Shown one piece after another: positions 7,110 through 8,039 of a stretch of DNA of 17,398 bases. Every line of letters starts with the position of its first letter. Position 1 is the first letter of the stretch. The translations under genes were made by a program, and so were the position numbers. The notes beneath the pieces are model-generated. The model saw only the letters and a list, made by a program, of their open reading frames with translations. It was not told the DNA's origin and searched no databases. Source of the stretch: a virus (Duplodnaviria > Heunggongvirae > Uroviricota > Caudoviricetes); IMG/VR virus record IMGVR_UViG_2778261177_000007, positions 1 to 17,398 of that record; one strand, written 5' to 3'.

Positions 7110-8039
7110 ATGGCAAACACTGCTGAGATATTCAATTTTCCAGTGCCGGATGAGGCACAAAAGGAGCCGCGCGTGGCAGATCTCGATGATGGTTATACGC
7201 GCATTGCAAATGAGTTGCTGGAAGCTGTGATGCTGGCCGGATTAACACAGTACCAGCTTCTGGTCTTCCTGGCTGTCATGCGCAAAACATATGGCTTTAA
7301 TAAAAAACTGGATTGGGTGAGCAACGAGCAACTTTCCGAGTTGACCGGGATATTGCCGCACAAGTGTTCTGCTGCAAAAAGTGTTCTGGTAAAGCGTGGG
7401 ATTTTTATTCAGAGCGGGCGGAATATCGGCATTAATAATGTGGTCAGTGAATGGTCAACATTACCCGAATCAGGTAAGAAAAATAAAGTTTACCTGAAAG
7501 AGGTAAATTTACCTGAATCAGGTAAGAAAAGTTTACCCAAATCAGGTAAAGACGTTTACCCGAATCAGGTAAACACAAAAGACAAACTAACAAAAGACAA
7601 TATAAAACCTTTTTCGTCCGAGAATTCTGGCGAATCCTCTGACCAGTCAGAAAACGATCTTCCTGTGGTGAAACCGGATGCTGCAATTCAGAGCGGCAGC
7701 AAGTGGGGGACAGCAGAAGACCTGACCGCCGCAGAGTGGATGTTTGACATGGTGAAGACCATCGCGCCATCAGCCAGAAAACCGAATTTTGCAGGGTGGG
7801 CTAACGATATCCGCCTGATGCGTGAACGTGACGGACGTAACCACCGCGACATGTGTGTACTGTTCCGGTGGGCATGCCAGGACAACTTCTGGTCCGGTAA
7901 CGTGCTAAGTCCGGCCAAACTCCGCGACAAGTGGACCCAACTCGAAATCAACCGTAACAAGCAACAGGCTGGCGTGACAGCCGGAAAATCAAAACTCGAC
8001 CTGACAAACACTGACTGGATTTATGGGGTGGATTTATGA
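7110..8039 (+). CDS. O: Replication initiation protein O (chimeric: divergent N-terminal iteron-binding domain, lambda-like C-terminal P-interaction domain)
   Basis: Start chosen at ATG 7110 (MANTAEIFNF..., GGGAGG SD), which aligns with the lambda O N-terminus (MTNTAKILNF...). Conserved VADLDDGY, KTYG, SEW. The C-terminal ~110 aa look near-identical to lambda O. Contains the ori iterons. ORF-track start 7020 rejected. Confidence 0.85.
   Translation: MANTAEIFNFPVPDEAQKEPRVADLDDGYTRIANELLEAVMLAGLTQYQLLVFLAVMRKTYGFNKKLDWVSNEQLSELTGILPHKCSAAKSVLVKRGIFIQSGRNIGINNVVSEWSTLPESGKKNKVYLKEVNLPESGKKSLPKSGKDVYPNQVNTKDKLTKDNIKPFSSENSGESSDQSENDLPVVKPDAAIQSGSKWGTAEDLTAAEWMFDMVKTIAPSARKPNFAGWANDIRLMRERDGRNHRDMCVLFRWACQDNFWSGNVLSPAKLRDKWTQLEINRNKQQAGVTAGKSKLDLTNTDWIYGVDL
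7461..7610. repeat. Origin of replication: five ~19-bp palindromic iterons plus an A-rich tract inside O
   Basis: Iterons TTTACC(C/T)(G/A)AATCAGGTAA(A/G) at about 7461, 7489 (degenerate), 7509, 7532 and 7556, each an internal TTTACC/GGTAAA inverted repeat, followed by CACAAAAGACAAACTAACAAAAGACAATATAAAACC. Confidence 0.75.

Follow-up and report, generated by a model that had tools for sequence, protein, structure and literature searches.

The O protein of bacteriophage lambda consists of an N-terminal DNA-binding domain, a flexible linker and a C-terminal domain that binds P (PMC6022878). Each iteron of the origin is bound by one O dimer, and the resulting O-some unwinds an AT-rich region (PMC6022878). 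In the prophage CP-933P the proteins YdaS and YdaT have been shown to be analogues of Cro and CII (PMC8630535).

The stretch of DNA analysed here, referred to as the window (17,398 nt), very probably holds the ori-O-P replication module of a lambdoid E. coli prophage with a lambda-like mechanism. The sequence features of a lambda-type O/P module are present: a Phage_rep_O domain, at least four iterons, an A+T-rich tract, and a C-terminal domain homologous to that of lambda with P downstream. It is a textbook modular O gene and is not new as an object. Alignment with lambda supports a two-module mosaic structure of O, in which the left part (N-terminal domain and iterons) is of non-lambda type and the right part (C-terminal domain, followed by P) is approximately 97–98% lambda. 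On the sequence comparisons described below, the left module is part of a widespread enterobacterial family, with a predicted specificity distinct from that of lambda.

The O gene and its neighbours

The features surrounding and within the O gene are as follows.

5390..6145, minus strand: cI-like repressor (HTH and S24 peptidase; PF00717, PF01381), divergent from the ydaS-ydaT-O-P operon
6184-6414, plus strand: ydaS (cro-like), upstream in the O-P operon; PF15943/PF06254 profile matches for the ydaS-ydaT pair
6484-7023, plus strand: ydaT (phi80 cII-like), upstream in the rightward O-P operon; PHROG 'CII-like transcriptional activator'
7010..7101, minus strand: candidate oop-like antisense RNA across the cII-like/O junction; stem-loop, -27.2 kcal/mol, z -2.9, with no Rfam family match
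7107..7135, minus strand: promoter-like site TTGAAT-17-CATAAT, placed as is pO (the oop promoter) in lambda
7110..8039, plus strand: gene O, replication initiator, 309 aa; limits supported by homology
7110..7460, plus strand: O N-terminal DNA-binding domain (aa 1-117), predicted to determine specificity from homology to lambda O, P22 gp18 and GZ7 O
7650..8036, plus strand: O C-terminal domain (~aa 181-309), lambda-type, presumed to bind P; 98% identical to lambda over 129 aa
8036..8737, plus strand: gene P, lambda-type DnaB helicase loader, 233 aa; PF06992, E 8.5e-62; ATGA overlap with the O stop codon

The start of O at 7110 is preceded by a GGGAGGA Shine-Dalgarno sequence, and its first residues, MANTAEIFNF, align with MTNTAKILNF of lambda. 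Some annotations use an in-frame ATG at 7020 as an alternative start, giving a 339-aa form. The O product is exactly RefSeq WP_089695950.1 and belongs to a 90%-identity protein cluster of 7825 members. Residues 21-115 match Pfam PF04492 (Phage_rep_O; E 1.7e-33, 115 bits against a cutoff of 28.7), and the protein also matches TIGR01610 (81.5 bits, cutoff 45.5) and PHROG 277, 'replication initiation O-like' (E 5e-162).

The protein was aligned with lambda O and 933W O. As the original prediction held, the N-terminal domain is diverged and the C-terminal domain lambda-like: identity to lambda O is 48.7% in the former (aa 1-115) compared with 98% in the latter. The N-terminal domain is closer to P22 gp18 (63.6%) and to the O protein of Klebsiella phage GZ7 (82%). 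Downstream, P is 97% identical to lambda P over 231 aa. The promoter-like site at 7107-7135, on the opposite strand, is conserved in alignment with the promoter regions of lambda oop and the phi80 M3 RNA.

An AlphaFold2 model of O, built from a 36-sequence alignment (mean pLDDT 51), is confident only for the C-terminal domain, which is helical (pLDDT ~83). The N-terminal domain is modelled at low confidence (pLDDT 34-57), and the stretch that contains the array is modelled as disordered (pLDDT <50 over residues 102-197). A Foldseek search of the model against the PDB gave nothing significant (best E ~2) and so lends no structural confirmation to a DNA-binding fold; a sequence search of the PDB with O likewise gave no match. 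DnaD N-terminal domains and MarR winged-helix proteins were among the weak Foldseek matches, which are not taken as evidence.

The iteron array, the A-rich tract and the mosaic joint

The origin elements lie midway through the O gene and are given here without strand.

7461..7477: iteron 1, TTACCCGAATCAGGTAA, frame 0, read as LPESGK
7490..7506: iteron 2, TTACCTGAAAGAGGTAA, frame +2, read as VYLKEV
7509..7525: iteron 3, TTACCTGAATCAGGTAA, exact repeat
7533..7549: iteron 4, TTACCCAAATCAGGTAA, exact repeat
7556..7572: iteron 5, TTACCCGAATCAGGTAA, frame +2, read as VYPNQV
7574..7609: A-rich tract, CACAAAAGACAAACTAACAAAAGACAATATAAAACC, with two ACAAAAGACAA units (repeat family D6); presumed DNA-unwinding element, from composition and a conserved motif
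7615..7643: 29-nt island, CGTCCGAGAATTCTGGCGAATCCTCTGAC, CGTC(C/A)GAGAATTCTGGCGAATCCTCTGAC, coding for SSENSGESSD; almost unchanged between O genes that have otherwise diverged

Five exact copies of TTACC-N7-GGTAA span 7461-7572, where they code for the linker between the Phage_rep_O domain and the lambda-like C-terminal domain. Each is a 17-bp dyad of two 5-bp arms and a 7-bp spacer. The five palindromic iterons proposed from the first reading of the sequence are thus confirmed, with the qualification that the 19-bp form then described, TTTACC...GGTAAA, occurs in three of the five. The same array was recovered by a repeat search and by TRF. With up to one mismatch the pattern occurs six times in the whole 17.4-kb window, compared with 0.41 expected, and none of 200 shuffled sequences reached six. 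Sub-threshold Rfam matches on the array were rejected as chance matches to a repetitive palindromic stretch; between 6800 and 7700 no family reaches its gathering score.

The iterons start 29, 19, 24 and 23 nt apart. The last three spacings match those of lambda (20, 24, 23) and 933W, and 19/24/23 is identical in loci of Klebsiella, Enterobacter, Pseudocitrobacter, Xenorhabdus, Pantoea and Providencia. Between genera the half-sites are 98-100% conserved, compared with 74-78% for the N-terminal coding region and 59-81% for the inter-iteron bases. Iterons of the lambda type (TCCCT-N7-AGGGA) are absent from O and its surroundings, and the two loose matches elsewhere in the window do not exceed the 5.3 expected by chance; an origin specificity other than that of lambda is therefore a sound inference. 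In some E. coli alleles no more than two or three iteron-coded repeats survive; the arrays therefore decay in some lineages. The feature tables of Perceval, an E. coli A3 prophage and Klebsiella phage GZ7 leave the iterons unannotated.

The A-rich tract, also foreseen in the linker-coding region, directly follows iteron 5 and contains 23 A in 36 nt (72% A+T). GC content falls to 0.27-0.37 over 7460-7620 (0.30-0.35 in the tract itself), and AT skew peaks at 0.77. The motif CACAAAAGACA...ACAAAAGA is also found 3' of the iterons in lambda, 933W, P22, SEN34, GZ7, mEpX1 and mEp213. The mosaic joint lies at the right edge of the tract, at ~7609, where lambda-like sequence begins. Compared with lambda DNA in steps of 30 nt, the sequence has 0-24 identical positions of 30 up to 7608, and 26-30 of 30 from 7609 to 8568. 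Just beyond lies the 29-nt island, a candidate for either a recombination joint or a right-hand origin element. It is found in lambda (with one base different), 933W, phi80, SEN34 and two Pantoea loci (L019 and L020). The phi80 O protein has a C-terminal domain only 47% identical to that of lambda, yet phi80 retains the island.

By analogy with lambda, transcription would run rightward from the immunity region through ydaS and ydaT into O and P. Dimers of O would then bind the five iterons through the Phage_rep_O domain to form an O-some, which would destabilize the adjoining A-rich tract. The lambda-identical C-terminal domain would recruit the lambda-type P carrying host DnaB, so that the helicase is loaded. 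Iteron binding, unwinding, recruitment of P-DnaB and origin activity itself are all predicted on this analogy.

Distribution and assortment of the origin module

In the phage collection, the DNA covering the N-terminal domain and iterons is 97.8-99.4% identical in at least 15 isolated coliphages. The upper value is that of Perceval, an active, plaque-forming phage (PMC9928086). Among 5426 complete E. coli genomes, 2242 (~41%) have a locus that covers the query to 80% or more. The original prediction of a new origin specificity on the lambda loading machinery is thus upheld as to the non-lambda left module and the lambda C-terminal domain and P, but not as to the word new. Identity to a characterized lambdoid replicon, named at the outset as the finding that would count against that prediction, was found for sequenced, viable phages; for an experimentally mapped origin it was not found.

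The iteron type also occurs in eight other enterobacterial genera, in phages or prophages of Klebsiella, Enterobacter, Pseudocitrobacter, Xenorhabdus, Pantoea, Providencia, Arsenophonus and Sodalis, where it is linked to different C-terminal and loader modules. The family was defined by an N-terminal domain at least ~63% identical to that of the window together with at least four TTACC-N7-GGTAA iterons, ending in spacings of 19/24/23 before an A-rich tract. The window has this arrangement, and the pattern occurs in 12 other loci. Half of these (Perceval, GZ7, two Enterobacter, one Klebsiella and Pseudocitrobacter) have five iterons spaced 29/19/24/23, and four, among Xenorhabdus, Pantoea and Providencia, have four iterons spaced 19/24/23. 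Arsenophonus (seven) and Sodalis (nine) carry longer, irregular arrays.

The iteron type is co-inherited with the N-terminal type of O, and the loader module assorts independently. Among the loci compared, TTACC-N7-GGTAA iterons are confined to O genes whose N-terminal domain shares at least 63% identity with that of the window. All relatives at or above that level have them, except one locus with an insertion at the iteron site (L016) and P22, which has another spacing. N-terminal domains of 48-61% identity go with TTAGC-N7-GCTAA iterons, and that of lambda with TCCCT-N7-AGGGA. On the other side, the iteron and N-terminal module is joined to a lambda-type C-terminal domain and P, to a GZ7-type C-terminal domain and a DnaC-like loader, or to others, and N-terminal domains of four or more types are found with the lambda-type C-terminal domain and P. 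The classical rule that lambdoid O carries specificity on the left and coupling to the helicase loader on the right is thereby re-derived from raw sequence, which has little weight alone. As by-products, one iteron class is defined, with a 17-bp TTACC-N7-GGTAA core and a fixed 19/24/23 phasing before the A-rich tract, and its type is seen to track that of the O N-terminal domain, with the loader (P, DnaC-like or DnaB-like) assorting independently.

It is quite possible, at somewhat short of an even chance, that this module, working by the same mechanism, is the classical replicon of phage 82 (O82/ori82), whose specificity was defined decades ago with lambda-82 hybrids; there would then be nothing new in it. 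Perceval and its relatives, which carry this O allele, have a nin region that matches record X92588 (phage 82 nin/rus/Q) at 94.4% identity. Moore, Denniston and Blattner, writing in Gene in 1981, reportedly found ori82 to have more repeats than the lambda origin, and the right half of O82 to be lambda-like, which allowed hybrid lambda-82 O genes. Against this, no phage 82 record is found among the DNA matches to the N-terminal domain and iterons. Partial records of phage 82 and PA-2 are part of the collection, so ori82 is either absent there or different. Literature searches did not recover an ori82 sequence.

Whether or not it is that of phage 82, a lambda-type module with a non-lambda specificity is the reading preferred here. 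A literature search with the iteron string returned no paper, and no experimental characterization of this specificity was found. The literature on lambdoid Chi sites and on the O protein of Stx phages concerns other origin types. From this absence one would not expect the class to be nearly so common in E. coli genomes as it is. A wider proposal, tentative and on balance doubtful, is that the TTACC-N7-GGTAA iterons and their O N-terminal domain represent an experimentally uncharacterized class of origin specificity, the commonest lambda-type replicon allele in E. coli (~41%), present in E. coli and eight further genera, with at least three interchangeable loading partners, and that cryptic origins of this class could fire in trans. 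Many genomes carry the module in defective prophages, so that, were this true, these origins could be fired by a phage of the same O type that superinfects the cell or already resides in it, with amplification of neighbouring cargo; in the window the cargo following P is an inverse-autotransporter moron of 1302 aa. The results could help to annotate prophage origins, to predict whether co-resident lambdoid prophages are incompatible or show cross-talk in replication, and to select ori/O pairs that are orthogonal for engineering.

The state of the prophage raises an unlikely alternative, that the prophage is defective here and its ori-O-P a dead relic, no longer functional. The prophage ends early, being truncated after ninB, so that the origin may never fire within a productive phage cycle. 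Homology to intact prophages stops at ~14824. What follows is an unrelated ORF, then the isrC sRNA, a fragment of a tail-fibre-assembly gene and an IS3 element, and genes for Q, lysis or structural proteins are not found in the window beyond that point. However, the ORFs of O, P, cI, ydaS and ydaT are intact, the five iterons are exact, and the region is 98.8-99.5% identical to its counterpart in viable phages and in many genomes. Cryptic prophage origins can stay active, as in the case of Rac oriJ.

Comparison with known replicons

Among the classical phages P22 provides the closest N-terminal domain, that of the gene 18 product (63.6%). Its origin likewise lies within the initiator gene, its iteron arms are again TTACC and GGTAA, and the A-rich motif comes after them as in the window. 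These likenesses would fit a P22-type origin (gene 18/ori-P22) joined to lambda P, a reading that we consider quite improbable. The P22 arms belong to four irregular repeats and are 5-6 bp apart, not 7; no N5 or N6 sites are found in the window and no N7 sites in P22. No more than 64% of the N-terminal residues are identical, gp18 has a different C-terminal domain, and it works with gp12, a DnaB-type helicase, as opposed to a lambda-type P. The window therefore lies outside the ori-P22/gene 18 group.

It is very improbable indeed that the repeats are only a low-complexity protein linker of LPESGKK-like units without function at the DNA level: they do lie within the predicted disordered linker, and alleles with fewer repeats exist, but one 17-mer is kept in two frames giving unrelated peptides (LPESGK as opposed to VYPNQV and VYLKEV), which argues that the iteron is kept at the DNA level and on which a purely protein-level repeat was rejected, the arms are perfect dyads conserved between genera where neighbouring bases drift, and the position, spacing and A-rich motif match the mapped origins of lambda, 933W, phi80 and P22.

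A phage 21 replicon was also considered, since the int-to-gam arm of the window is 97.6% identical to phage 21 and the prophage adjoins icd in related genomes, icd being the attachment site of phage 21. It was ruled out, as phage 21 has annotated lambda-type iterons.

Common to the window and lambda itself are an origin inside O, iterons with 5-N7-5 dyads, an A-rich tract, the O/P overlap and a pO/oop-like antisense promoter, in addition to the near-identical O C-terminal domain (98%) and P (97%). The differences are found in the half-sites (TTACC/GGTAA as opposed to TCCCT/AGGGA in lambda), in the number of iterons (five, compared with four in lambda and six in 933W), in the upstream genes (ydaS/ydaT, the phi80-type cro/cII, in place of the lambda cro/cII) and in the absence of ren after P. 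The iterons of lambda, 933W and phage 21 were taken from their annotated records. Both its iteron type and its N-terminal identity to lambda (48.7%) place the window outside the ori-lambda specificity group of lambda, 434, 21 and 933W.

In the O genes of GZ7 and of the Enterobacter and Klebsiella prophages, the N-terminal domain is 79-84% identical to that of the window and the five iterons have the identical 29/19/24/23 spacing, but the C-terminal domain is unrelated to that of lambda and a DnaC-like loader replaces P. The closest counterparts are Perceval (the LF82 prophage), 4A7, Lambda_4C10, 1W, 3W, the PhiR series and Turner, which are 97-99% identical over the query (7020-8039, the cII-like 3' end and O), have five iterons of the same spacing and share a similar int-to-gam left arm. 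In these phages P is followed by renD-emrE-ybcK or other cargo, and the late region is complete; the window has instead the inverse autotransporter and the truncation after ninB.

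Gene O and its surroundings

The initiator gene O and the helicase loader gene P are adjacent in the window, with the start of P overlapping the O stop codon (ATGA). The early features are:

7110–8039 (+): gene O, ORF of 309 codons; the whole protein matches 'replication initiation O-like' (PHROGs, E 5e-162)
O residues 21–115: Phage_rep_O (Pfam, E 1.7e-33); the NCBIfam phage O N-terminal domain covers the same stretch
8036–8737: gene P, lambda P-type helicase loader (PF06992, E 8.5e-62)
Upstream of O, same orientation: YdaS-type and YdaT-type genes
Upstream, divergent from the ydaS/ydaT-O-P direction: cI-like repressor
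Within 7010–7135 (−): promoter-like site TTGAAT-17-CATAAT over the first O codons, conserved with lambda pO and the phi80 M3 RNA promoter

In the O157 prophage CP-933P, YdaS is a Cro analogue and YdaT a CII analogue, and both lie ahead of an o gene (PMC8630535). The YdaS/YdaT-type genes and the divergent cI-like repressor around O thus place the gene and its origin within the early-right operon of a lambdoid prophage. Two O starts are found in annotations: PGAP and the record of phage Perceval use an ATG at 7020, overlapping the ydaT stop and giving 339 residues, and members of the O protein cluster in databases carry either choice. Homology to the O proteins of lambda, Klebsiella phage GZ7 and others, together with a GGGAGGA Shine–Dalgarno sequence, favours the start at 7110 (309 residues). 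An oop-like antisense unit is seen at 7010–7135 (−). Its promoter-like site is followed downstream by a strong stem-loop (−27.2 kcal/mol, z −2.9) with only a weak T-run, and no Rfam family covers the unit.

In the AlphaFold2 model of O, confidence is good only in the helical C-terminal domain (pLDDT about 83). The N-terminal domain is poorly modelled and residues 102–197 form a disordered linker, consistent with a flexible, iteron-encoded linker. A fold search with the model gave no significant match, and no solved structure of an O homologue was detectable by sequence search.

The iteron array and A-rich tract

The original prediction placed five iterons of approximately 19 bp and an A-rich tract inside O. 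Both are confirmed. Five exact TTACC-N7-GGTAA sites start at 7461, 7490, 7509, 7533 and 7556, each with perfectly complementary 5-bp arms, and the tract, CACAAAAGACAAACTAACAAAAGACAATATAAAACC (7574–7609; 23 A in 36 nt), directly follows iteron 5 within a GC trough of 0.27–0.37 across 7460–7620. Allowing at most one mismatch, the whole window holds six matches against 0.41 expected, a number reached in none of 200 shuffles; the array is also recovered by general repeat finding and by TRF. The 19-bp form, TTTACC...GGTAAA, holds for three of the five copies, but the other two do not extend to it.

The pattern of conservation indicates that the repeat is a DNA element rather than a repeated peptide. 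The 17-mer is translated in two frames, giving LP(E/K)SGK from iterons 1, 3 and 4, VYLKEV from iteron 2 and VYPNQV from iteron 5. Comparing the window with the five-iteron arrays of Klebsiella, Enterobacter and Pseudocitrobacter, with the register set from the first iteron only, gives identities of 98–100% for the arms, 80–89% for the spacers, 59–81% for the inter-iteron bases and 74–78% for the preceding 300 coding nt. In a set of 66 iterons drawn from 13 loci, the 17-bp core has high information content, unconstrained spacer included (consensus CGAATCA), and in the flanks this falls to 0–0.8 bits.

Six E. coli alleles of O (P0006, P0007, P0009, P0010, P0012 and P0013 in alignment A1) have in-frame deletions that leave three or two iteron-coded peptide repeats. 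These alleles suggest recombination between iterons, possibly with inactivation of the origin in some prophages. An O homologue of Enterobacter sichuanensis (L016:2501–3622), the N-terminal domain of which is 73% identical, is without iterons and carries at their position an in-frame insertion resembling a GIY-YIG/T5orf172-type motif (...AGYIYVFAESECGPVKIGFTT...). The insertion may be a mobile nuclease domain put into the origin.

Mosaic structure, prophage context and distribution

The predicted combination of a diverged N-terminal domain with a lambda-like C-terminal domain is borne out. Over residues 1–115, an alignment with lambda and 933W O gives ~49% identity; the C-terminal 129 residues are 98% identical to lambda, and P is 97% identical to lambda P. 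In 30-nt windows the DNA matches lambda at 0–24 of 30 positions up to 7608 and at 26–30 of 30 over 7609–8568, and this jump places the mosaic joint at the right-hand end of the A-rich tract. Shortly beyond the joint, a 29-nt block, CGTCCGAGAATTCTGGCGAATCCTCTGAC (7615–7643), which contains an EcoRI-site palindrome, is nearly invariant in the O genes of lambda, 933W, phi80, SEN34 and Pantoea despite diverged flanks. The block is kept even in phi80, where the C-terminal domain shares just 47% identity with that of lambda. It could plausibly be a homology patch for module exchange or a functional right-hand origin element.

The last two P codons differ from those of lambda, at the junction with a cargo region (8987–13975) between P and the nin region. 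The features to the right of P are:

8987–12895 (+): inverse autotransporter, 1302 aa, intimin/invasin-like, IAT_beta and five Big_1 repeats
12932–13975 (−): alpha/beta hydrolase
14864–15868: ORF, 334 aa, no Pfam or family match
15890–16012 (−): isrC, Hfq-binding sRNA, full-length (Rfam RF01387, 135 bits against a gathering score of 39), in the junction region beyond the prophage remnant
16055–16258: tail-fibre-assembly C-terminal fragment, 67 aa
16332–17398: IS3-family orfA/orfB

Perceval has renD-emrE-ybcK where the window has the autotransporter, whereas the hydrolase is common to both. Homology to intact icd-integrated prophages stops at about 14824, after a ninB-like gene (14423–14827), and the right part of the window (14824–17398) matches E. 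coli islands with YpjA/EhaD at only about 87% identity. This end of homology, with the unrelated ORF, isrC, fragment and IS3 genes beyond it, makes ori-O-P part of a truncated prophage, in which the early genes and all five iterons are intact.

Of the proposal that the chimera brings a new origin specificity, the mosaic and the separate specificity stand, but the novelty does not; the window module is common, already present in databases, and belongs to the lambda-type ori/O/P family. The region 7020–8039 (cII-like 3′ end and O) is 97–99% identical in 15 isolated coliphages, including Perceval, 4A7, Lambda_4C10, 1W, 3W, the PhiR series, Turner and IdasGreatGrand, and its N-terminal-plus-iteron part is 97.8–99.4% identical in the same phages. 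Of 5426 complete E. coli genomes, 2242 have a site that covers at least 80% of the query; these are genuine carriers of the window O allele because 58% of the query is the non-lambda part. The 90%-identity O protein cluster has 7825 members, and the 339-residue reading is RefSeq WP_089695950.1. As an active, plaque-forming prophage of strain LF82 (PMC9928086), Perceval shows that the replicon works in nature.

Many contig matches, L030–L044 among them, are uniformly 49% identical to the query, as lambda itself is. They lie on short, low-coverage contigs of unrelated organisms (Bradyrhizobium, Paenibacillus, Shewanella, Ruminococcus and others) and suggest contamination of the assemblies with lambda DNA, or a lambda spike-in.

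The TTACC-N7-GGTAA class probably lacks experimental characterisation. The literature searched contained neither the iteron string nor experimental work on this specificity, and no iterons are annotated in the feature tables of Perceval, the E. coli A3 prophage or GZ7, which has the same iteron type. It is conceivable, if somewhat doubtful, that ori82 is of this type, in which case the specificity was characterised genetically in the 1970s–80s; the nin/rusA region of phages with the window O allele is 94.4% identical to phage 82 record X92588. We take phage 82 to have an origin with more repeats than that of lambda and a lambda-like right half of O82.

Specificity modules and comparison with mapped origins

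O loci were collected from phages and from a single genome of each species, and tabulated. Arrays of 4 to 9 TTACC-N7-GGTAA copies occur at every tabulated locus with an N-terminal domain at least 63% identical to that of the window, except L016 (insertion at the iteron position) and P22 (other arm spacing). They are found in Perceval, GZ7 and prophages of Enterobacter, Klebsiella, Pseudocitrobacter, Xenorhabdus, Pantoea, Providencia, Arsenophonus and Sodalis. All four- and five-iteron arrays end in 19/24/23 spacing, and those of Arsenophonus (7) and Sodalis (9) are irregular. At 48–61% N-terminal identity (SEN34, HK97/mEp213-type, several prophages) the iterons are TTAGC-N7-GCTAA; those of mEpX1 are GTCTC-N7-GAGAC and those of phi80 TTCCC-N6-GGGAA. 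The loader module varies independently of the N-terminal/iteron module:

Lambda-type C-terminus and P: window, Perceval (98%), SEN34 (83%), Pantoea (52%/42%)
GZ7-type C-terminus and DnaC-like loader: Klebsiella, Enterobacter, Sodalis
P22-type C-terminus and DnaB-like gp12

E. coli also has a further N-terminal type (MSNLAT..., VTKTVT-coding repeats) fused to a near-100% lambda C-terminus. In the classical model O has an N-terminal DNA-binding domain, a flexible linker and a C-terminal P-binding domain; a dimer binds each iteron and the O-some destabilises the AT-rich region (PMC6022878). Separate assortment of the two modules is what this model predicts.

In the annotated records of lambda, 933W, phi80, P22 and phage 21, iterons occupy the same relative position in O-type genes as in the window. 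The CACAAAAGACA...ACAAAAGA motif follows them as in the window in lambda, 933W, P22 and phage 21, whereas the phi80 tract differs. The lambda iteron (TCCCT-N7-AGGGA) has the same 5-N7-5 format but other arms. Start-to-start spacings (bp) are:

Lambda: 20, 24, 23
933W: 20, 19, 20, 24, 23
Window: 29, 19, 24, 23

The last iterons thus keep a conserved phase with respect to the A-rich tract. The int-gam arm of phage 21 is 97.6% identical to that of the window, and phage 21 presumably integrates at icd, where the related prophage of E. coli A3 lies; its replicon is ruled out as the identity of the window origin, as its iterons are lambda-type. A search of the window for P22-type sites with 5–6-bp spacers found none. 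Among classical relatives, P22 gene 18 is nearest to the window O (64% identity), with identical iteron arms but spacers of 5–6 bp against 7 in the window.
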